64,000 nucleotides of DNA from an uncultured Azoarcus sp. (GTDB taxonomy: Bacteria; Pseudomonadota; Gammaproteobacteria; Burkholderiales; Rhodocyclaceae), in contig CAXBIS010000011.1 of the NCBI GenBank assembly GCA_963975885.1, positions 54,977 through 118,976 on the forward strand. Direction: 5' to 3'. The notes below the pieces were generated by a model. It ran no database searches, had not been told where the DNA came from, and saw nothing but the letters and a program-made list of their open reading frames with translations. The translations under genes and the position numbers were made by a program. Every line of letters starts with the position of its first letter. The first letter of the stretch is position 1. Below, one piece after another: positions 2,566 through 60,411 of this stretch.

Positions 2566-3536
2566 AAACAACCGAAGCGCTGGAACGCCTGCCCGACGCG
2601 CTCGCGCGCAAGTTCGGTCGCAGGCGCGACGACACCCTGCCGGTCACGCTGCGCCAGGGGCGCATCTATGTATTGCCCACGGCCGCCGGCCTGTCCTTCG
2701 CGCTTGCGCTGCTGGTGATGCTGATCGGGGCGATCAATTACGGCCTGAGCCTGGGCTACGCGCTGGTTTTCCTGCTGTTCGGACTCGGCGTAGCCAGCAC
2801 CGTGCACGCCTTTCGCAACCTGCTCGGGCTGCGCATCCTGCGCGTGGCGGTCGAGCCGGTGTTCGCCAACGAGACCGCAACGCTGCGCCTGTACGTCGAA
2901 AACCCTTCGAACTGGCGGCGTGCCGCGCTGCGCATTCGTGTCGGCGACATCGAGACCCATGCAACGCTCGAAGCGGGCGCCGCCGAGACGCTCGCCGTCG
3001 CCGTGCCCACCGAACACCGTGGCTGGCTCGCGATCGAGCGCATCGCGCTGTACACCACCTGGCCACTCGGGCTCGCCAGGGCCTGGAGCGTGCTGCGACC
3101 GACTGTCTCCGTGCTCGTCTACGCCGCGCCCGAACGCAACGCGCCGCCCCTGCCCTCGGGTGACGGCTCCACCGAAGGCCTGCGGGGAGACGGCGATGAC
3201 GACTTTGCCGGCCTGCGTGCGCACCGGCTCACGGACTCACCCCGCCATGTCGCCTGGAAGGCGGTGGCGGCCGGCGGGCCGATGCTGACCAAGGAATTCG
3301 CCGGAAATGAGGGCGCAGCCCTGGAACTCGACTGGCATGCCCTATCCGGGTGTCCGCAGGATGACGCCCGCGCGGCGAGGCTCACCGCCTGGGCGCTGGC
3401 CGCCGAATCGCGCGCGCTGAGCTACGCACTGACGACACCCGATGGCCGGCTCGCGCCCGCGCACGGACGCGCTCATCTGTCCGCCTGCCTGGCGCGACTC
3501 GCCCTGGCCAGGAGCCGCCATGGCCCGCACGCCTGA
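2562..3536 (+). CDS. DUF58-domain protein (MoxR-associated)
   Basis: Its ATG overlaps the MoxR stop (ATGA). There is an N-terminal double-TM segment followed by a DUF58-like region. The position directly after moxR is the classical arrangement. Confidence 0.8.
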   Translation: MKTTEALERLPDALARKFGRRRDDTLPVTLRQGRIYVLPTAAGLSFALALLVMLIGAINYGLSLGYALVFLLFGLGVASTVHAFRNLLGLRILRVAVEPVFANETATLRLYVENPSNWRRAALRIRVGDIETHATLEAGAAETLAVAVPTEHRGWLAIERIALYTTWPLGLARAWSVLRPTVSVLVYAAPERNAPPLPSGDGSTEGLRGDGDDDFAGLRAHRLTDSPRHVAWKAVAAGGPMLTKEFAGNEGAALELDWHALSGCPQDDARAARLTAWALAAESRALSYALTTPDGRLAPAHGRAHLSACLARLALARSRHGPHA

Positions 3537-5496
3537 TCGCGCAGCACCACGCGCGGCGTCGCTATGGCTGTTTGCAACGGCGCTGGTCACGGTGGTGCCG
3601 CACACGGCCTATCTGCCGCTGTGGGCATCGGGCGCGTGCGCGCTGCTGCTCGCATGGCACCTGGCACGCGCGCGCAGCAACGGCCCGAGGATCGGGCGCG
3701 TGCACCGCCTTTCGCTGCTGCTCATCGCGCTCACCGTCGCGCTCGCCGTGCGGCTGGATTTCGGCTACTTCTTCGGCAAGGCACCGGGCATCGCGATGCT
3801 CGCCACGCTGCTGTGCATGAAACTGCTCGAAGGCAATAGCCCGCGCGACGTGCGGGCCGGCGTACTGCTCGCCTTCTTCCTGCAACTCGCCCTGTTCTTC
3901 GACGACCAGACGCTGACAGCCTCGTTGTTCGCGCTGACCGGTGCGCTGTGCGCGGCGGCCACCATGCTCGCGCTCGAAGACCCCGAGCGTTCGCCGTGGC
4001 GCACGCTGCGTACCGGTGGCACCCTGATGCTGCAGGCCATACCGTTTCTGATCGTACTGTTCATGCTGTTCCCGCGCCTGCCCGGGCCGCTGTGGGGCCT
4101 GCCGCGCGACGCCTGGGAAGGCATGACCGGCCTGTCCGAGGAGATGGCGCCGGGCTCGATTGCGGAGCTCGGCCTGTCAAGCGAGATCGCGCTGCGCGCC
4201 GACTTTGCCGACACGCTGCCACCACCCGCACAGCGCTACTGGCGCGGTCCCGTCCTGAGCGAGTTCGACGGGCGCGTGTGGCGCATGACGCGCAGCGCGC
4301 AACTTGCCGAGCCGGCCTATGCACTCGCCGGCCCGGCCATCGACTACGTGCTGACGGTGGAGCCGCACAACAAGCGCTGGCTGCTCGCGCTCGACTTCCC
4401 GGGCGAAGTGGCGCGCAATGACGTCGCCTACGGCAGCGAATACATGCTGCTGGCCGAGCGTCCGTTGCGCACGCGCACGCAGCTTTCGTTGCAGGCCTAT
4501 CCGCAAACCATCATTGGCCAGGAGGAATCGGCTGCGGTACTGGAAGCGGCCACGCGCCTGCCCGAGGACGCCGGCCCGCGCACCCGTATTCTGGTGGACG
4601 AACTCGTCGCCGACGCCAACGATGCCTCGCAGATCCTCGATCGCGTGCTCGCTTGGTTCTCGACCAACGCGCTGACCTACACGCTCTCCCCGCCCCTGCT
4701 CGAGGACGACCCCATCGATGAATTCCTGTTCGACGCGCGCCGTGGCTTCTGCGAGCACTTCTCGTCGGCCTTCGTCTTCATGATGCGCGCTGCCGGCGTG
4801 CCTGCGCGCGTCGTCACCGGCTACCAGGGCGGCACGCTCAACCGCGTCGACGGAACGCTGGTGGTGCGCCAATCCGACGCCCACGCCTGGGCCGAGACCT
4901 GGCTGCCCGGGCGCGGCTGGGTACGCGTCGATCCGACCGCACTGGCCGCACCATCGCGTATCGAGAGCGGCGTCTCGGCCGCGCTGCCTGCCGGCGAGAC
5001 GCGCCCGATGATGATGCGCGATGGCGCCGCAGCCGATGCGCTGCGTGCACTGCGTGATCGCTGGGAGGCGCTGGGCAACGCCTGGAACCGCAACGTGGTC
5101 GGCTACGACCGCCAACGCCAGAGGGACTTCCTGCAGCACCTGGGCTTCGAGCAGCCGGATTGGCGCACGCTGGGCTTCGCGCTCGGTGCGGGACTGGCGA
5201 CCTTGATGCTGGCTCTGCTCGCGTGGGCACTGCACCAACGCCGCTCCGGAGATTCGCTCGATCATCTGTGGCGCCGCTTCGGCGCGCGCCTGGCGCGCCG
5301 GGGTCTGGCGCGTTTGCCTGCAGAAGGCCCGATCGATTACGCTGAGCGAGTCGCACGTGCGCTGCCCGACCGGGCGAGTGAGGTGCGCCTTATCGCGCGC
5401 AGCTATGCGCGCCTGCGCTACGGTCCACCGAGCGCGAACGCCACCGCGCTGACGCGCGAGCTGGCACAACGCATCCGGGAGTTTTCACCACAATGA
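3520..5496 (+). CDS. transglutaminase-domain membrane protein (DUF3488/TGase type)
   Basis: A multi-TM N-terminal half is followed by a GFCEHFSSAFVFMMRAAGVPARVVTGY...DAHAWAE Cys-His-Asp transglutaminase core. I chose the in-frame ATG at 3520, which overlaps the DUF58 end, over the track start at 3442. Confidence 0.8.
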   Translation: MARTPDRAAPRAASLWLFATALVTVVPHTAYLPLWASGACALLLAWHLARARSNGPRIGRVHRLSLLLIALTVALAVRLDFGYFFGKAPGIAMLATLLCMKLLEGNSPRDVRAGVLLAFFLQLALFFDDQTLTASLFALTGALCAAATMLALEDPERSPWRTLRTGGTLMLQAIPFLIVLFMLFPRLPGPLWGLPRDAWEGMTGLSEEMAPGSIAELGLSSEIALRADFADTLPPPAQRYWRGPVLSEFDGRVWRMTRSAQLAEPAYALAGPAIDYVLTVEPHNKRWLLALDFPGEVARNDVAYGSEYMLLAERPLRTRTQLSLQAYPQTIIGQEESAAVLEAATRLPEDAGPRTRILVDELVADANDASQILDRVLAWFSTNALTYTLSPPLLEDDPIDEFLFDARRGFCEHFSSAFVFMMRAAGVPARVVTGYQGGTLNRVDGTLVVRQSDAHAWAETWLPGRGWVRVDPTALAAPSRIESGVSAALPAGETRPMMMRDGAAADALRALRDRWEALGNAWNRNVVGYDRQRQRDFLQHLGFEQPDWRTLGFALGAGLATLMLALLAWALHQRRSGDSLDHLWRRFGARLARRGLARLPAEGPIDYAERVARALPDRASEVRLIARSYARLRYGPPSANATALTRELAQRIREFSPQ

Positions 5497-52522: not shown

Positions 52523-53335
52523 TCAGTCGACGGCCCAGTCCACCTTCTCCACCGTCCCCAGCGAGCGCCCCAGGAAGCGCTCGCCGATGGCCTCGAAGCG
52601 CAAGGGCACGTCCGTGACATAAAAGCGATGCGCCGGCTTGCCCGCCTCGCGCGCGAGCCCCTGTCGCCGCAACTCGTCCGCGGCCAGCTCGGCGGTCGTC
52701 GTGGCCGAATCCACCAGCCCCACGCGACGCCCCACCACCCGCTGCAACAACGGTTTGAGCAGCGGATAGTGGGTGCAGCCCAGCACCAGCGTATCGACCT
52801 CCTCGGCCAGCACCGGCTTGAGATATTCGCGCGCCGTCATGCGCGCCACCGGGTGATCCAGCCAGCCCTCCTCGACCAGCGGCACGAACAGCGGACAGGC
52901 CGCCGAATACACGCGCACGCCGCGATCGAGCGCATGGATGCGCTCGGCGTAGGCATTGCTGTTGATCGTCGTCGGCGTACCGATCACGCCCACGCGCCGG
53001 CTGCGCGACCCGGCCACCGCCGCGCGCGCTCCGGCATCGATCACGTCGATCACCGGCACTTCGCCCGCACACTCGCGAACCACATCGTCGGCCACAGCCG
53101 CCATCGTGTTGCACGCGACGATCAGCATCTTCACGTCGCGCTGCATGAGAAAGCGCGCAATCTCCCCCGCGAATCGGCGGATCGTCGCCACCGACTTGAT
53201 GCCGTATGGCACGCGCGCGGTATCGCCGAAGTACACGATGTCCTCGAACGGCAGGCGATCCATCAGCGCCCGCACCACGGTCAGCCCGCCGATGCCGGAA
53301 TCGAATACGCCGATGGAACCGCCAGGTCGAGACAT
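52523..53335 (-). CDS. murI: glutamate racemase
   Basis: IGVFDSGIGGLTV, IVACNTMAA and LGCTHYPLL catalytic-Cys motifs. 270 aa. Confidence 0.92.
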   Translation of the reverse strand: MSRPGGSIGVFDSGIGGLTVVRALMDRLPFEDIVYFGDTARVPYGIKSVATIRRFAGEIARFLMQRDVKMLIVACNTMAAVADDVVRECAGEVPVIDVIDAGARAAVAGSRSRRVGVIGTPTTINSNAYAERIHALDRGVRVYSAACPLFVPLVEEGWLDHPVARMTAREYLKPVLAEEVDTLVLGCTHYPLLKPLLQRVVGRRVGLVDSATTTAELAADELRRQGLAREAGKPAHRFYVTDVPLRFEAIGERFLGRSLGTVEKVDWAVD

Positions 53336-53417: not shown

Positions 53418-55013
53418 CTAAGAAGAACTTTCAAGCGCGAGTGGATTCGCTCGCGAAAAAGAGCGTTCTCCACAAGTAAACGGACAAGCCCGGGTTCCAT
53501 TGATCTTCTTGCCGACTCTTCGGTTGCGGGCGTCGATGAGGTAGTCGATGGTCACGTCGCCGGGCAAGGTGACCTGACGCAGATTGCCCAGTGCGTCGTA
53601 GTCGTAGGTGGTGGTCGCACCCGACTGGGTCTTGCTTTGGAGTTCTCCGTTGGCAGTGTAGTCGTAGCTGCTGTTGCCGTAGGTGAGCAGACGGTCCTGG
53701 GCGTCGTAGGTGGCCACGGGCACGTCGTTGACGTGGCTGCGGTTGCCGTTGGCGTCATAGCTCCAGGTGGTCTCGACGCCGCCACGGGTGTGGCTGACCA
53801 GCCGTCCGGCGGCATCGAAGGCGTACTCGTCCGTGACACTGGCGCCGGACAGGGTCTCGGTGCGGGCAGTGATGCGGCCAGCCGCATCACGCGTGTAGGC
53901 GAACTGGAGTACTTCGGTGGCACCGAGTGTGGTGGTGTCGAGGGTGGGTTCGCCGAAGGCGTTGTAGTCGTGCTCCGTGGCGACCGTGCCCAGGGTGGTT
54001 GCCGTGATGAGGCCGTTCTGCGCGTCGCGTGTGAGTTGCAGCGCGCCGGCTGCGGTGAGTAGCCCGTCGGCGTCGTAGTCGAGCGCGACGGACTGGCCAT
54101 TGACCGCGATCGAGCGCAGCCAGAAGTTGTCGTCCCAGCTGCGGGTGATGCTGCCGGAGACTTCGCCTGTGGCGATCTCGGTGATCGGCAGGAAGCCGTC
54201 CCAGGTGAAGTCGAGGCGGTGGCCGCCGGGGGCGGTGACGGAAGCCGGCTGGCCGGTGTCGGCGTGGTAGGTCCAGACGGTTTCACCGACATCGGTGCTA
54301 ACGGTCGCAAGCCGACCACCGGTGTCGTACGCGAAGTCGATGGGCTCGCCGTCGGGGCGGGTGATGCGGGTCAGTCGTTTGTCGCGATCGTAGGTGTGGC
54401 GCGTGACCGTGGCGAGCCCGGCCAGTTCGGGCGGATCGTATTCGCGTAGCTGGTCGGCCTCGGTGTAGTCGAACAGATGAGCGTCGCGGCCCGGCGGAAT
54501 GACGGCGGCGAGGTTGCCGTTGGCGTCGTAGCCGAATTCGACGCTGCGCCCGTCGGAAAAGGTCTGGCGGGTGACGCGGCCGACCGGGTCGTAGTCGAAG
54601 GCCGTGATGCGATCGAGCGGGTCGGTGATCGAGGCCAGATCGCCCGCCCTACTCCACGCGAAGTCGGTGATGCGCTCGGACGACTCCCCGGCCAGGACCC
54701 GCGTGATCCGACCGCGGGCGTCCCGCTCATAGGTGAGCGGGGCGAGGCCGGAGTAGGCCTCGTGCGCCGGACGACCCAGTTCATCGAGGATCTGTTCGTG
54801 GGTGCGCCCGAGCGGCGTGCTGGTGACGCGCGTGCGATCGGCAGCGGTGCAGCTCTCGTACGGCGGGATATGCGCAGCGCATCCCGCCGGATGGTTCGTT
54901 GCAAACCTCCTTGTGCAATCGCCAGCATGCACCAAAAACCCCGTGCGCGGCGCAGTCTCTGGTCGATCATCGCCCTTTGTCCACGAAGACCGGATCAGTT
55001 GCAGCCCCCGCAC
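53418..55013 (-). pseudogene. RHS/YD-repeat protein fragment (repeat region only; both ends missing)
   Basis: About 460 aa of YD repeats (e.g. YDANGNLAAV, FAYDTGGRLATV, YAFDAAGRLVSH, YDYDALGNLRQV). The frame leaves the family consensus right after ...DARNRRVGKKINGT (near 53495). There is no N-terminal domain, no RHS core and no toxin tip. Confidence 0.75.
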
Positions 55014-55179
55014 CCTTTGCAGTCAAGCAAGTACCTGCGCAATCCGTCACGTGATCGTAAAGCGCTGGCACATATGGTGTTTTTGTGAAACAGTATGCCC
55101 ATTGACAATCAATAACGACGCACGCACGTTGATTCGATATTGCAGCGTGCAATCAAAGCACTGTTAAGCATTGAAGGAG

Positions 55180-55779
55180 ATGAAATTGGAAGTTGCAACC
55201 TGGATATCAGCCGTAGCCAATATTTTTATCGCCCTTGGCGTCGGTCTTGCTTTGTGTTCATTCCGCGGCGACCATGAAAGATCAAGACGAGAAAAAGCTG
55301 TCGAGCTTATTTCTCAGTGGGCACTGAACCTGAATAAGAGAGGGTCTGCTGCGAGAAAGCTGGTGGAAACGCTTGATCACGAAAAATCCAAGTTGCTCTT
55401 CAATCAAGAACCTCTGACGATTGGCAAGAAGCATATTGGGCTAGTTCGAGCAGCTTTGGAAGCTGATGTAAATGAGCCTGAAGGTAATGAAATTGATTTG
55501 GACGAAAATCAGTCCTCTGAGCTACGTTGGCAAGTTGTTACATTCTTAAATAGCCTTGAATCAGTACTATCGGCATGGCGGCACAATATAGCTGATAAGG
55601 ACATTATTACTGAGCAATTTAGATATTTGGTATCGAAAACCGATGGTCACTATATTTTGGAGGAATTTAGGGTTGTTGCTGGAGGTAGTCATACTTACCC
55701 AGCAATACAAGAATTTGTGGAACATCTTAAAAAAGAGCTAAATAAAAATGACGGTTCAGGTAAGCGGCCTGTTGCTTAA
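55180..55779 (+). CDS. hypothetical N-terminally membrane-anchored helical protein (cassette 1)
   Basis: AAGGAG RBS at 55174-55179. The start is ambiguous (TTG 55171, ATG 55180, or TTG 55186 with the best spacing). TM segment VATWISAVANIFIALGVGLALCSF, then a basic stretch, then about 170 aa of predicted helices with an acidic patch EADVNEPEGNEIDLDENQ. About 40-45% GC. No family recognised with confidence. Confidence 0.7.
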   Translation: MKLEVATWISAVANIFIALGVGLALCSFRGDHERSRREKAVELISQWALNLNKRGSAARKLVETLDHEKSKLLFNQEPLTIGKKHIGLVRAALEADVNEPEGNEIDLDENQSSELRWQVVTFLNSLESVLSAWRHNIADKDIITEQFRYLVSKTDGHYILEEFRVVAGGSHTYPAIQEFVEHLKKELNKNDGSGKRPVA

Positions 55780-55871
55780 CAAAACGCTTTTGTCGGACTG
55801 GTTTTCCGCTGCGCTCCAAACCAGCCGCAAAGCTTGGCGCTGGGCGTACAACCATGCTTTTTGAGTTGGAG
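55774..55871 (+). other. attC-like recombination site of cassette 1 (3' core ambiguous or degenerate)
   Basis: R'' is GCTTAAC and contains the TAA stop. Bulged stem GCTTTTGTCGGACTGGTTT / AAACCAGCCGCAAAGC with extrahelical T, T and A. Block-wise similarity to the 57414 site: AACAA-N3-GCTT-N5-GGAC ... CCGC-N2-AGCT ... GGGC-GT. Candidate 3' cores are GTACAAC (55846) or GTTGGAG (55865). Confidence 0.45.
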
Positions 55872-55888
55872 AACTATCAGGACTAATC

Positions 55889-57382
55889 ATGGCTAGCAAG
55901 CTAGAAATACTAAAAACCACCGAAATTGGCGAGCGCGTTGCGGAAGAGGAAGCCGATAGTCTGGAGCAATATTTTGTCGAAACAGACCAATGGCAGCAAA
56001 TGCGCGCAGGCAAGATTGATGTCGTGTATGGGCCGAAGGGTTCGGGGAAGAGCGCCCTATACACATTGTTAAACCGGAAAGACGGTGAGTTCTTTGATGC
56101 CGGAATACTCATAGCAGCGGCGGAAAACGTCAGGGGGGCCACCGTTTTCAGATCAATTGTTGCTGATCCGCCGCCATCTGAGATGGCATTTATTTTTCTG
56201 TGGAAACTCTATTCATTGACATTAATCGCACGCGAACTTCGCGAATACGAAGTAAAAACGGAGGAGTCAAAGGCTCTGATAGAAAGCTTAGAAAGGGCTA
56301 AGTTGTTGCCGGCCAGCGGGACGCTTTCTGGTCTTTTCACAGCAGTCCGCACCTATCTCACTAGTTGGCTAAATCGTGATGCGGATTCAGTCGAGTATGC
56401 GATAACTATCGACCCAATGACTGGCACCCCTACTTTTACCAGAAAAACGCGATTCGCTGAACAGTCCGACGATCAGAATCTTGGGGATATCCCGGTTGAT
56501 GATCTCCTAGGCGTCGCGGATGTCGCTTTACGGAAAAGCAAGTTGACTATGTGGGTGTTATTTGATCGCCTCGATGTAGCTTTCGCCGAGTCAGAAGACC
56601 TTGAACGAAATGCATTACGCGCTTTGTTTCGGGCCTATAGCGATTTGCGCGCACATTCACATATATCTCTAAAGATATTTGTAAGAGACGATATTTGGCG
56701 TCGGATAACGGAGGGCGGATTTACTGAGGCTAGCCATATTACTAAAGCAGTACACATAAGTTGGACAAACGAAAGTCTATTGAATCTAGCGGTCCTTCGG
56801 CTTATCAGCAATCAGAGTATCGTAGATTACCTATCCGTCGATCCGGCCGCCGTAAGGGCGGATTACCACCAGCAGCTAGAACTATTCTATCGTCTCGCAC
56901 CTCGTCAAGTTGACACCGGGAAAAACCCGGACGCATTCGACTGGATCGTTTCGCGAACAACAGATGCAAGTGGGAACTCAGTCCCGCGTGAGGTCATCCA
57001 CTTAATCGATGTGGCTAAAGATCTGCAGATTCAGAAATTGGAAAGAGGTGGTGAGGAACCTGAGGGAGAGATCCTGATTGATCGAAGTGCATTTAAAGAA
57101 GCTTTGCCTCAGGTATCGAAAGTGCGCTACGAGCAAACACTCATAGCTGAGCATCCCGACATGGCTGACTATCTCAAGCAGCTAGAAGGTGAAAAGTGCG
57201 AACAGACTGTTGATACACTTGCAAGGCTGTGGAAAATTGAGCGGAGCGACGCCGCAGTCATAGGTAAACGACTCGTGGACATCGGGTTCTTCGAATCTAG
57301 GGGCTCAAAAGAAGCCCCATCGTTTTGGATCCCGTTTCTATATCGAGGAGCGCTCGATTTGGTACAGGGGAAGGCAGAATGA
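55889..57382 (+). CDS. P-loop NTPase of unrecognised family (cassette 2)
   Basis: 497 aa. Walker A VVYGPKGSGKSALYTLL. Walker B-like LTMWVLFDRLDVAF. A further conserved-looking ISLKIFVRDDIWRRI. The C-terminal third is helical, possibly wHTH-like. No nuclease, protease or TM domain is evident. AGGA RBS is 6 nt upstream. About 45% GC. Confidence 0.75.
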   Translation: MASKLEILKTTEIGERVAEEEADSLEQYFVETDQWQQMRAGKIDVVYGPKGSGKSALYTLLNRKDGEFFDAGILIAAAENVRGATVFRSIVADPPPSEMAFIFLWKLYSLTLIARELREYEVKTEESKALIESLERAKLLPASGTLSGLFTAVRTYLTSWLNRDADSVEYAITIDPMTGTPTFTRKTRFAEQSDDQNLGDIPVDDLLGVADVALRKSKLTMWVLFDRLDVAFAESEDLERNALRALFRAYSDLRAHSHISLKIFVRDDIWRRITEGGFTEASHITKAVHISWTNESLLNLAVLRLISNQSIVDYLSVDPAAVRADYHQQLELFYRLAPRQVDTGKNPDAFDWIVSRTTDASGNSVPREVIHLIDVAKDLQIQKLERGGEEPEGEILIDRSAFKEALPQVSKVRYEQTLIAEHPDMADYLKQLEGEKCEQTVDTLARLWKIERSDAAVIGKRLVDIGFFESRGSKEAPSFWIPFLYRGALDLVQGKAE

Positions 57383-57413
57383 CGATGAGAGTTCTCGTTC
57401 CTGTAGATGTACC

Positions 57414-57476
57414 GCCCAACAATCGGCTTGAGAAGGACGCTCGCAAAGCGAGCGCCGCTCAGCTGGGCCGTTAGCG
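57414..57476 (+). other. attC-like recombination site of cassette 2
   Basis: GCCCAAC (RYYYAAC) - AATCG - GCTTGAG - AAGGA - CGCTCGC-aaa-GCGAGCG - CCG - CTCAGC - TGGGCC - GTTAGCG. A 63-bp imperfect palindrome with an extrahelical T, resembling the aadA-type 59-base-element layout. Confidence 0.6.
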
Positions 57477-57566
57477 TGCATACGTAGCCATGAGCCGGTT
57501 CACTTTTTTCGCCGATATTGCAGGCCAAGCAACACTTGATACGAAGGGCAGCAATCGCATTACGGC

Positions 57567-58579
57567 TGTACAGATCAAGTATTCACCTGACACCGGCCCC
57601 GAGCCGGTGTTGCTTTATGCAGCCTGCGGGATTGTCTCCTCGGGCTGCTCGGTAATGCCCGCCTCGAACATCTGAGCAGGCGTTCTGCCTTCCATCATCC
57701 GCCCCTGATGCGGGCGCTCGTGGTTGTAGTGGTGCAGGTACTTCTCCAGGTCCCCCTGCATCTGTTCAACCGACTCGTACCACTTCGTTCGCCCGGCAAT
57801 GCGGAAGTGCTCATCAAGCAAGGTGCGATGCAGCCGTTCGACGAATCCGTTGCTCTGCGGGCGTCCGACGCGAGTCGTGCGATGCTCGATACCTTCCAGT
57901 TGCAGGAACAGCTCGAACGGATGGCTGTCGGGCCGCCCGCAGTACTCGCGCCCGTTGTCCGACAGGATCGTTTCGATGCGAACGCCGTGCTCTTCAAAGT
58001 GTGGCAGCACGTCGTTGTTGAGCACATGCACGGCGGTGAGCGGCAGCTTGCTGGTGTACAGGCGACCGAAGGCGAAGCGGCTGTAGCAATCGAGCACCGT
58101 CTGCAGATAGACCTTGCCCACGCCCTTGAGCGCGCCGACGAAGAAGGTGTCGATGGCGACCAATTCGCCGGTGTGATGCACTTCGATCTGGCGCTCGCGA
58201 AACTCGGGGCTGAAGCGTTCGAGCAGGCGCACCTGTTCTTCATTCAGATCCAACGCCTGCTCGCGTTGCGCACGTTCCAGACGCGGTAGCCGGGCAGCTT
58301 GTCGAGCAAGCCGGCCGAGCCATACGTCTGGTAGTTGCGCCGGATCTCGTAGAATTGCTGCCGGCTGTAGCCCATCACCTTGCACGCGCGGCTCACGTTG
58401 CGAAGCTCCTGCGCCAGCTCCAGAAGGCTCTGCTTGCGACGTGCTATTTTCTCTTCGGTGGTCATGCGTACTTCCTCCAGGTCATGAACAGGTAGGGGTA
58501 CCCGTTTCATAACCCTGTTCGAGGCCGTATGACCACCCCCTGACATGGTCAACTGTCAGGTGAATACCGTATCAGCACA
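57567..58579 (-). mobile_element. IS481-family insertion sequence, internally deleted, with 7-bp target-site duplication
   Basis: Imperfect about 26-bp terminal IRs: TGTACAGATCAAGTATTCACCTGACA (57567-57592) and TGTCAGGTGAATACCGTATCAGCACA (58554-58579), with a 14-bp perfect core. Direct repeats TTACGGC at 57560-57566 and 58580-58586. Confidence 0.8.
57615..58465 (-). pseudogene. IS481-family DDE transposase, internally deleted and frameshifted
   Basis: The N-terminal HTH part MTTEEKIARRKQSLLELAQELRNVSRACKVMGYSRQQFYEIRRNYQTYGSAGLLDKLPG stops at 58244. The rve/DDE part (…EEQVRLLERFSPEFRERQIEVHHTGELVAIDTFFVG…SDNGREY…PQSNGFVERLH…) is in another frame. The junction is near 58285-58292, and roughly 75 codons of the family consensus are missing. 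Confidence 0.8.
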
Positions 58580-58821
58580 TTACGGCAGATGCAGTGGCGG
58601 TTCCGACAGGCAACGTTGAAAATCTCCGGTCTCACGTGCACGGCTGGCCGAAGTGGCGTGATTGCGACGTCTACCCGCATTTGATTAGCACGTCGCCTTG
58701 GAGTCCAGTCCCATTGTAAGCTTCCCATTCAGGGGCAAGCTCGGTTGGCGATAATCGTATCGCGCAAATCCTGATCGGCCGCGGGGTCACATGCGCTGCG
58801 GTCGAGCGCCCCACTCTCTGT

Positions 58822-59949
58822 TCAGTACGGATCCAGATGGCGCGCCAGCGCCCAGACCACGTGCTCGCGCACGAGCTCGGAGGGGTCGTCCGCGCGGGCG
58901 CGCAGCGCCGTGACGATCTCGGGCGAGGTCGGAGCGTTGCCCAGCGCGACGGCGAGGTTGCGCGACCAGCGTTCGAAGCCGATGCGATGGATCGCGCTGC
59001 CGGCGGTCCGCTCGTGGAAGTCTGCCTCGGTCCATGCGAACAGTTCGACCAGCGTGGCCGCGTCGAGCGCGTTGCGCGGGGCGAAGTCGGGCTCGGCGGT
59101 GATGCGTGCGAAGCGGTTCCACGGGCACACGAGCTGGCAGTCGTCGCAGCCGTAGATGCGGTTGCCGATCATCGGGCGCAACTCTTCGGGGATCGCACCC
59201 TTGAGTTCGATCGTGAGATACGAAATGCACAGGCGTGCATCGACCTCGTAGGGTGCGACGATGGCGCCGGTGGGACAGGCGTCGATGCAGGCCGTGCATG
59301 TGCCGCAGTGCTCGGCCTGCGGCGCGTCGACGGGCAGCGGCAGGTCGGTGAAGATTTCGCCGAGGAAGAAGGTGGAGCCGGCTTCGCGGTTGAGCAGCAA
59401 GGTGTGCTTGCCGCGCCAGCCCAGGCCGGCACGGGTGGCGAGTTCGACTTCGAGCACAGGAGCGGAGTCGACGAATACGCGGTGGCCGTGTGGCACTTCC
59501 GCCTCGATGCGCTTTGCGAGCTTGGCGAGGCGCGCGCGCATGAGCTTATGGTAGTCGCGTCCCAGCGCATAGCGCGATACATAGGCACGTGCGGGGTCGG
59601 CGAGTGCGGCCTCGGCATCGGCCGCGTCGGGCCAGTAGTTCATGCGCGCGCTGATCACGCGCACGGTGTCGGGCAGCAGTTCGGCCGGGCGGGCGCGCTT
59701 CATGCCGTGGCGGGCCATATAATCCATCTCGCCGTGGAAGCCCGCGGCCAGCCACGCGGCCAGCCCCGGCTCGGCGTCGGCGAGATCGACCCCGGTCACC
59801 GCGACCGCATCGAAACCCAGCTCCGCACCCCAGGCGCGGATGCGCGCGACGAAGGCGGCACCGTCGGCATCGACGGGGCCGTCGGAGGCTTGAGCATGAT
59901 TCAGGACATTCACCCCATCGATGATACCGGCCGCGGCTTCTCCGCACAT
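58822..59949 (-). CDS. queG: epoxyqueuosine reductase
   Basis: FHGEMDYMARHG, 4Fe-4S motifs CGTCTACIDACPTGA and CDDCQLVCPWN, and HEAT-like C-terminal repeats. The start is uncertain (ATG 59949 or GTG 59913). Confidence 0.88.
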   Translation of the reverse strand: MCGEAAAGIIDGVNVLNHAQASDGPVDADGAAFVARIRAWGAELGFDAVAVTGVDLADAEPGLAAWLAAGFHGEMDYMARHGMKRARPAELLPDTVRVISARMNYWPDAADAEAALADPARAYVSRYALGRDYHKLMRARLAKLAKRIEAEVPHGHRVFVDSAPVLEVELATRAGLGWRGKHTLLLNREAGSTFFLGEIFTDLPLPVDAPQAEHCGTCTACIDACPTGAIVAPYEVDARLCISYLTIELKGAIPEELRPMIGNRIYGCDDCQLVCPWNRFARITAEPDFAPRNALDAATLVELFAWTEADFHERTAGSAIHRIGFERWSRNLAVALGNAPTSPEIVTALRARADDPSELVREHVVWALARHLDPY

Positions 59950-60411
59950 CTGGCGGACGAGGCAGACACCGAGCGCGCCGGCGCAGCGCTGGCCGAGGGG
60001 CTGGTTTCAGGGCTGGTCATCTACCTCGTCGGCGACCTCGGCGCAGGCAAGACGACACTGGTTCGCGGCTGTCTGCGCGGGCTCGGTCACACCGGAAAAG
60101 TAAAAAGCCCTACGTACACCTTGATTGAACCTTATGTAGTTTCTAGATTACACTTATATCACTTTGATTTTTATCGGTTCAACGTTCCGGAAGAATTCCT
60201 GGAAGCAGGGCTGGAAGAATATTTCTCCGGATCGGGCGCGTGCCTTGTAGAATGGCCCGGCAAGGCCGAACCGTATATCGCCAATGCCGACATCGAAGTT
60301 CGCCTCAGCGTCCGCGCCCCGGGCAGGGACATCGAGGTCGAAGCACTGACGGAAACCGGACGAAGATGCGTTCACATCATGATGTCGACCCTGCAAGCCT
60401 GCCCGTCCTGA
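59896..60411 (+). CDS. tsaE: tRNA t6A37 biosynthesis ATPase TsaE
   Basis: From ATG 59896 (GGAGG RBS): LVGDLGAGKTTLVRG (P-loop), SPTYTLIEPY, HFDFYR, the TsaE/YjeE signatures. Confidence 0.85.
   Translation: MIQDIHPIDDTGRGFSAHLADEADTERAGAALAEGLVSGLVIYLVGDLGAGKTTLVRGCLRGLGHTGKVKSPTYTLIEPYVVSRLHLYHFDFYRFNVPEEFLEAGLEEYFSGSGACLVEWPGKAEPYIANADIEVRLSVRAPGRDIEVEALTETGRRCVHIMMSTLQACPS

Follow-up and report, generated by a model that had tools for sequence, protein, structure and literature searches.

The question raised by this locus is what a foreign, low-GC stretch of 3.6 kb represents that separates murI from queG in an uncultured Azoarcus sp. (GenBank assembly GCA_963975885.1, contig CAXBIS010000011.1). 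The 64,000 nucleotides of this contig that were analyzed are referred to below as the window, and all positions count from its first letter. The low-GC island itself (~55050-57480) has a GC content of 40-50%, vs. 65-72% in the flanks and the genome. An initial annotation, made from the letters alone, had proposed an integron-type array of gene cassettes at this place. The locus is very probably a CALIN (cluster of attC sites lacking an integrase), i.e., a short chromosomal cassette array that is left without its integrase and is decaying: two attC sites are located on the same strand at a distance of 1.57 kb, and a close relative holds different cassettes at the same junction. By definition, a CALIN has two or more attC sites that lie within 4 kb of each other and no integrase next to them (Cury et al. 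2016, NAR 44:4539, PMC4889954).

Identification of the attC sites

The search pattern AACAA-N3-GCTT-N5-GGAC-N(8-38)-GCCGC-N2-AGC was widened from the block common to the two GC-rich palindromes of the window and was compared with one genome per species for 185,579 species. It matched at 35 places; at 22 of them a GTT follows exactly 5 nt after the AGC (the L' box) and a heptamer of the form xxxxAAC stands upstream, neither of which is part of the pattern. The hosts were typical integron carriers, namely Halopseudomonas, Pseudomonas, Vibrio, Alcanivorax, Thioalkalivibrio, Methylophaga, Psychromonas and Chlorobium. Homologues of the integron integrase IntI are encoded at five of these loci (they share as much as 50% identity with IntI1 across >310 residues), and the site found in Neptuniibacter is near-identical to the first palindrome of the window. 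Within the window, the block AACAA-N3-GCTT-N5-GGAC occurs exactly twice, both times on the + strand and at the palindromes; with up to two mismatches allowed, three matches were counted, vs. 0.73 expected from shuffled sequences. The initial annotation had placed both palindromes in one attC family on account of their shared block structure. Sites of the same family stand in arrays that adjoin IntI homologues in other genomes.

Three covariance models were applied, all of them trained on sites from other genomes: R1 on 18 pattern-positive sites, R2 on 51 sites found by R1 in the pattern-match loci (29 of them not matching the pattern), and R3 on 20 array sites which have different L boxes and do not match the pattern. 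Each of the models matched the same two places of the window, on the + strand and at full length including the R boxes, so that the covariance-model check proposed in the initial annotation came out positive for both palindromes. The first site, attC1 (55774-55845), yielded 78.7 bits (E 5e-22) with R1, 75 bits (E 1e-17) with R2 and 62.5 bits (E 1e-13) with R3; the corresponding values for attC2 (57414-57476) were 30.6 bits (E 1e-6), 36.5 bits (E 6e-7) and 23.9 bits (E 3e-3). None of the models gave a further match with E <0.1 in the window, and no third attC emerged when R2 was run over 54800-58900 with the filters off. Regarding covariation over the 51 sites, 225 cells were changed on both sides of a pair, as compared with 73 +/- 7 after shuffling and at most 57 with a slid partner, in an alignment that had been fitted to the model. 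Both palindromes are attC sites.

Structure of the sites and cassette boundaries

The layout of attC2 is canonical: R'' box GCCCAAC, spacer AATCG, L'' box GCTTGAG, AAGGAC, hairpin GCTCGC-AAA-GCGAGC, GCCG, L' box CTCAGC, spacer TGGGCC and R' box GTTAGCG. The succession in attC1 is R'' box GCTTAAC, spacer AAAAC, L'' box GCTTTTG, TCGGAC, hairpin, GCCG, L' box CAAAGC, spacer TTGGC and R' box GCTGGGC. Bulged bases are found at the expected places of the top strand (a T belonging to the L'' box and the A within GGAC). Both R'' boxes carry AAC, and the crossover triplet is GTT in attC2 and at the left junction; in the R' box of attC1 (55839-55845) the triplet (55839-55841) reads GCT instead of GTT, which is a single T-to-C change. 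The non-standard pairs in the model alignments of attC1 are confined to the R box, one of them at the GCT position. The features of the array are as follows.

54854-55162, + strand: left flank, 309 bp, 54.7% GC, ending ...AAGCACT before G/TT; candidate attI or attI remnant
55163-55169, + strand: junction core GTTAAGC, crossover at G/TT
55164-55839, + strand: cassette 1, 676 bp, bounded by the junction core and the R' box of attC1
55180-55779, + strand: open reading frame (ORF) 1, 199 aa, DUF4760; alternative starts TTG 55171 and TTG 55186
55774-55845, + strand: attC1, 72 nt, matched by R1, R2 and R3
55840-57470, + strand: cassette 2, 1631 bp, first bases CTGGGC
55889-57382, + strand: ORF2, 497 aa, Sll1717-family P-loop ATPase
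57414-57476, + strand: attC2, 63 nt, matched by R1, R2 and R3
57471-58750, + strand: third cassette-like unit, beginning at G/TTAGCG of attC2; no attC detected, right end not fixed

In the CALIN reading, IntI inserted the cassettes singly as circles, the folded bottom strand of each attC recombining with the target at G/TT; a cassette inserted in this way starts with TTxxxx, and these bases complement the R'' box (xxxxAAC) of the attC that belongs to it. In cassette 1, the first six bases (TTAAGC, 55164-55169) are the exact reverse complement (6/6) of GCTTAA (55774-55779), just as the initial annotation had pointed out; the TAA stop codon of ORF1 falls within the same R'' box, GCTTAAC. The start of cassette 2, CTGGGC, complements its own R'' box GCCCAAC at 5/6 positions and at 4/4 of the variable ones, the mismatch being the mutated T, and GTTGGGC would be an exact complement. 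The same rule was observed in 22 of the 29 consecutive attC pairs of control arrays and in 7/8 pairs of a Halopseudomonas salina array which adjoins intI. Because its start complements its own R'' box and the models end attC1 at 55845, cassette 2 extends from 55840 to 57470, and the boundary between the two cassettes is at 55839/55840.

All motifs from which the array had originally been proposed are exactly in place (GTTAAGC at 55163, GTTGGAG at 55865, GTTAGCG at 57470, GCTTAAC with the ORF1 stop at 55774 and GCCCAAC at 57414), as are the ORF starts TTG 55171 or ATG 55180, ATG 55889 and ATG 57490. Regarding the three cores thought to precede the ORFs, GTTAAGC and GTTAGCG stand, whereas GTTGGAG has to be replaced by the R' box of attC1, GCTGGGC. 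As a core of cassette 2, GTTGGAG was rejected since all three models end attC1 at 55845, and the stretch 55846-55871 scores 5 bits (E 9.9) with filters off. Judging from the mutation in its crossover triplet, attC1 is probably crippled, and cassettes 1 and 2 would now be fused; with GCT in attC1, they could at best move together.

Comparison with other arrays and related strains

Cassette 1 recurs on JGI metagenome contigs (L045-L049), with 88.8% identity over 55163-55812 and homology setting in at 55163. On these contigs, the attC upstream of the DUF4760 cassette ends ...GCAGC GTTAAGC, the cassette's own attC (R2 E 6e-8) ends GTTAGCC, and the next cassette carries a different gene, which encodes an 874-aa AAA_13 ATPase; the neighbours thus differ on both sides from those in the window. 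Because the same cassette is found with the predicted boundaries and other neighbours, cassette 1 is a mobile unit.

A contig from an unrelated metagenome (L050) represents a close relative, with a QueG that is 97% identical to that of the window and flanks that are 90-96% identical overall (95.8% from 58664 rightwards, 89.8% over 53492-55166). Left of the junction, the identity is 83-93% up to ...CACTGTTA (55166), vs. 25% beyond. To the right of G/TT, the relative has a 125-aa gene followed by a 225-aa gene. Its first cassette starts with TTAGCT, and the attC of this cassette (R2 E 6e-5) runs from AGCTAAC to GTTATAC, the complementarity being 6/6. Two close strains have thus received different cassettes at one and the same nucleotide. 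The recurrence of cassette 1 elsewhere, the presence of other cassettes at the same junction and an ORF2 homologue followed by an attC of its own are regarded as decisive for the interpretation of the locus.

The comparison of murI-queG intervals, which the initial annotation had recommended in the search for an empty site, yielded no such site among the relatives compared; what it did yield was the same site with other cassettes (L050), an intact RHS gene (L036) and, in a more distant relative (L053), a queG with other neighbours. One relative, with 84% identity in QueG, has tenA after queG, and the 10 kb fetched from it do not include murI. A TARA scaffold (L051) is 100% identical to the window over 54753-57611, and an ENA contig (L044; ERZ3422254, 1370 bp) is 100% identical over 55030-56498 except for a 98-bp gap. 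(Note that this gap, 56046-56143, would cause a frameshift in ORF2; the TARA scaffold has the bases in question, and the gap is either a real deletion or an error due to low coverage, which is 2.5 for this contig.)

Left flank and missing integrase

The remnant of an RHS gene that had been noticed to the left of the array is an internal fragment of such a gene (53488-54853, Pfam RHS_repeat E 1.5e-39). It is 95.9% identical to positions 3381-4746 of the RHS gene in L036 (>1851 aa, intact), and the homology ends at 54853. This relative (97% identity) has an intact RHS gene where the window and L050 keep an internal piece, and the 5' truncation seen in the window is also present in L050. The 309-bp flank that follows is not part of RHS, has no match in L036 and yielded no match in the plasmid collection. 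Since L050 has different cassettes at the same G/TT, the left junction is attI-like, and the flank is most likely the attI remnant of an integron platform. The statement that no attI is visible was therefore too strict, the flank being conserved in L050. Because the RHS deletion abuts the flank, it could have removed intI, and the rearrangement by which the RHS gene was shortened probably cost the locus its integrase gene as well.

The last 60 nt before the junction (55103-55160) contain the repeats AATCAA, TTGATT and AATCAA and a palindrome, ATTGCA-GCG-TGCAAT. This is the part of the flank that is best conserved in L050 (91-93%), and it may include integrase-binding or promoter elements.

Using tblastn with IntI1 and five homologues from L003, L004, L005, L017 and L033 as queries, no match with E <0.01 was obtained in the window, nor any in 54600-55300. 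The earlier observation that no intI is visible is thus confirmed for the window, and with two attC sites within 4 kb the label CALIN is retained. As compared with a complete integron, no intI adjoins the array and no Pc promoter was found by a sigma-70 scan, which is a weak test. The counts from a promoter and terminator scan were not above those of shuffled sequence. A metagenome scan with an attI-like 22-mer retrieved only the TARA scaffold identical to the window and no integrase-bearing ancestor. Because there is no intI within reach, attC1 carries GCT, and the last unit lacks an attC and is split by an insertion sequence (IS), the array looks largely frozen.

Several observations weigh against the CALIN interpretation as a whole. 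R1 and R2 were seeded by a pattern derived from the window, a circularity that R3 removes only in part, and under R3 the score of attC2 is modest (23.9 bits, E 0.003). On the top strand, the L box has an extrahelical T in a position where C is usual, as in attC(aadA7) and the Vibrio cholerae repeats. No attC was detected in the third unit, and the array has no defined right end. The search for an integrase spans the window, which extends just 6.5 kb to the right of attC2, and a sigma-70 consensus scan of 54800-55180 (a weak test) revealed no promoter-like site upstream of the cassettes. The attI reading depends on one comparison between two strains, in a lineage without an attI model.

Alternative explanations and known systems

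It is considered unlikely that no integron ever existed at this locus and that an integrase encoded elsewhere in the genome or by a passing mobile element inserted the cassettes into host DNA at an ordinary GWT target (attG or secondary site), although this route has been proposed for small CALINs and for elements with a single attC (Loot et al., bioRxiv 10.1101/2022.09.11.507474). The cassettes described there, among them the SALINs, share with the window the chromosomal location away from an integrase and a GWT-type junction, the GTT of the window fitting that consensus, while the CRGM motif at +6 to +9 would fall in the original right half of the target; in addition, the window has just two attC sites and no IntI remnant, and the homologues of ORF2 elsewhere are located in isolated low-GC islets, one of them with a degenerate attC. 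The window differs from such insertions in that the same nucleotide holds different cassettes in two strains, which indicates a reused site or cassette turnover, i.e., attI behaviour, in that the GC content of the left flank (54.7%) is not that of the host (~68%), and in that no empty site was found; moreover, the flank abuts the RHS deletion junction that could have removed intI. Of a decayed integron with a surviving attI and an attG insertion, the former is favoured: the junction is shared while the cassettes at it differ, the flank does not have the GC content of the host, and a deletion lies next to it. It is likewise improbable that the 309-bp flank is a functional attI on which an integrase from outside the window acts in trans, with exchange still ongoing. 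Such a working platform would account for the difference in cassette content between strains whose flanks are 90-96% identical and for the intact GTT and canonical layout of attC2, and half of the CALINs of the 2016 survey are located in replicons with an IntI gene (Cury et al. 2016, PMC4889954). The mutated crossover triplet of attC1, the last unit without attC and the IS in the array argue against it; moreover, the integrase search covered the 64 kb of the window, and the difference between the strains could predate the loss of the integrase. Even less probable is the more far-reaching proposal that the flank is an orphan attI still exchanging cassettes via an integrase elsewhere, i.e., a live, strain-variable platform in a marine Azoarcus-like lineage, and that the Sll1717 STAND-like ATPase is a single-gene anti-phage module.

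The view that the region is a horizontally acquired islet unrelated to integrons, the GC-rich hairpins being terminators or other repeated palindromes, is effectively refuted. Both palindromes are indeed situated just 3' of ORFs, and the folding of the bare hairpins is only moderately above that of shuffled sequence (z-scores of -2.5, for attC2, and -1.6). However, neither hairpin has a T-run or was called by the terminator scan, the attC models match at full length with the R boxes included, R'/R'' complementarity is present in both cassettes, one cassette recurs in another attC array with its boundaries at the predicted nucleotide, and the homology to L050 breaks exactly at G/TT. A chimera produced by assembly or binning, which would have placed a low-GC segment on an Azoarcus-like contig, would explain the abrupt change in GC content and could be suspected because the source is apparently a metagenome-assembled genome, yet the chance of this is very small: the left junction is 100% identical in L051 and L044 (samples which may be shared), and L050, from an unrelated metagenome, has the same left and right flanks around its own cassettes.

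The CALIN reading also agrees with what has been catalogued. The 2016 survey listed 279 CALINs, in 83% of which the attC sites numbered fewer than six, and found IS in a quarter of the complete integrons (Cury et al. 2016, PMC4889954); a later survey of RefSeq listed 2961 CALINs, 1362 of them with two cassettes (Loot et al., bioRxiv 10.1101/2022.09.11.507474). Like CALINs in general, the locus has two same-strand attC sites, no nearby intI, a small array, cargo of unknown function without resistance genes, and an IS; it is unlike the usual CALIN in that the junction is conserved but the cassettes at it vary from strain to strain, a hint of a surviving attI, and in that one attC has a point mutation in the crossover triplet. 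With the sedentary chromosomal integrons of marine and freshwater Proteobacteria, such as that of Halopseudomonas salina (L017), it shares the attC family AACAA-N3-GCTT-N5-GGAC ... GCCGC-N2-AGC-N5-GTT, the R'/R'' complementarity and the cassette sizes. Sedentary integrons have an adjacent intI, many cassettes and homogeneous attC sites, in contrast to the two sites of the window, which belong to different length classes (72 and 63 nt).

Cassette genes

ORF1 encodes a membrane-anchored protein with a hydrophobic helix at the N terminus and a DUF4760 domain (Pfam PF15956, E 3e-8); its 58 homologues are nearly all metagenomic. ORF2 belongs to NCBIfam NF047389 ('P-loop ATPase, Sll1717 family'; 199 bits vs. 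a cut-off of 75) and partly matches the PADLOC candidate PDC-M28C (E 1.5e-17). According to an AlphaFold2 model (pLDDT 83.7), whose top Foldseek matches were Orc1/Cdc6, Apaf-1 and BrxC (TM-scores of 0.3-0.48) and which also resembles RdrA, the TM-scores being low, it is predicted to be an AAA+/STAND-like NTPase with a C-terminal part that is helical or winged-helix. The 2660 homologues of ORF2 have a patchy taxonomic spread, those with 50-76% identity coming from Beta-, Gamma-, Delta- and Alphaproteobacteria, Cyanobacteria and Firmicutes; the three that were viewed in context are located in low-GC stretches among unrelated neighbours. In Parazoarcus communis CP022188 (L040 6001-7569), a homologue with 67% identity lies within a low-GC islet of 3 kb that has leuCD on one side and a LysR-family gene on the other, and is directly followed by a degenerate attC (R2 E 0.007) with the R' box ATTGAGC. 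This looks like a stranded single cassette (SALIN), and by way of this homologue and its degenerate attC there is an indirect indication that cassette 2 may be mobile as a unit.

A conserved ORF1-ORF2 pair was considered and rejected: different genes surround the ORF2 homologues of Parazoarcus, Shewanella and a Logan contig, and homologues of ORF1 adjoin a different ATPase. Both the window and the array on L045 (1041-4350; JGI 3300060630) have a P-loop ATPase cassette after the DUF4760 cassette, which may be a coincidence or reflect a loose functional link. Integron cassettes have recently been reported to encode phage defence (bioRxiv 10.1101/2024.07.02.601719), and by analogy a role of ORF2, or of the cargo as a whole, in defence is plausible; a literature search gave nothing on Sll1717 and nothing useful on DUF4760.

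In the plasmid collection, only the core of attC1 was matched among the cassette sequences, at attC-like places on megaplasmids of Pseudoalteromonas, Salinivibrio and Catenovulum. On the Pseudoalteromonas shioyasakiensis megaplasmid CP076682 (L052 7949-13157), a near-identical core stands among hypothetical genes, and no integrase is annotated within 12 kb of it; this may be another small cluster lacking an integrase.

Third unit, neighbouring genes and right end

The remaining features of the locus are as follows.

52523-53335, - strand: murI
53488-54853, - strand: inner part of an RHS gene, bordering the locus on the left, outside the cassette array
57567-58579, - strand: IS481-family insertion sequence, 1013 bp, inside ORF3
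58664-58821, + strand: right flank common with L050, reaching the stop codon of queG and containing a hairpin followed by GTTGGCG (58744-58750)
58822-59949, - strand: queG

The IS has 26-nt terminal inverted repeats and is framed by a 7-bp direct repeat, TTACGGC (57560-57566 and 58580-58586), as target duplication. Its transposase (NCBIfam transpos_IS481, E 8e-58; helix-turn-helix and rve domains) is split into two overlapping frames (58244-58552 and 57615-58385), for which reason the element, the sole copy within the window, is probably inactive. The third ORF of the initial annotation is, as a frame of 61 aa, an artefact of the insertion; once the IS and one copy of the 7-bp duplication are removed, 57490-57566 joins 58587-58719 to give an ORF3 of 69 aa.

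The right end of the array cannot be fixed because the sequence from ~58664 rightwards is common with L050. Directly past the ORF3 stop (58710-58750), and kept in L050, is the hairpin AAGCTTCCC-ATTCA-GGGGCAAGCT, which with the following GTTGGCG resembles the L box and R' box of an attC without R''. Neither this hairpin with its GTTGGCG nor the stretch ~58640-58690 is accepted as a third attC, as no model matched either with filters off. At the corresponding position of L050 there is an attC-like arrangement of 41 nt (GTATGAC ... GATTAGC), which is not claimed, being too short and partly in the shared flank.

MurI of the window shares a 90%-identity cluster with proteins of Pseudazoarcus pumilus and 'MAG: Azoarcus sp.', and the nearest relatives of QueG are from Azoarcus, Aromatoleum and Thauera. 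In the 'MAG: Azoarcus sp.', MurI (MBA4742850.1) and a QueG with 98% identity are apparently encoded on one contig. To the right of attC2 are queG and ORFs which match the tsaE, amidase, ribF and ileS genes called in the relatives L050 and L053. Beyond queG, near the tsaE/amidase boundary, the GC content dips briefly to 47-50% (60000-60300). On the murI side, the C-terminal tip of the L036 RHS gene is missing from the window, and so is a gene of 141 aa that adjoins murI (L036 4747-6729); the two may represent a toxin tip and the corresponding immunity gene. L050 retains more of the 3' part of the RHS gene than the window does.

Significance

Thousands of CALINs have already been catalogued, and the locus does not change what is known of integrons. 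For annotation it means that the genes in the murI-queG gap are better regarded as mobile cassettes than as an operon. For integron biology it provides a natural example of array decay, which comprises probable loss of the integrase, a crossover-triplet mutation that would fuse cassettes, loss of the terminal attC and insertion of an IS. The DUF4760 and Sll1717 cassette genes, which are widespread and uncharacterised, are candidates for the current functional screens of integron cassettes.

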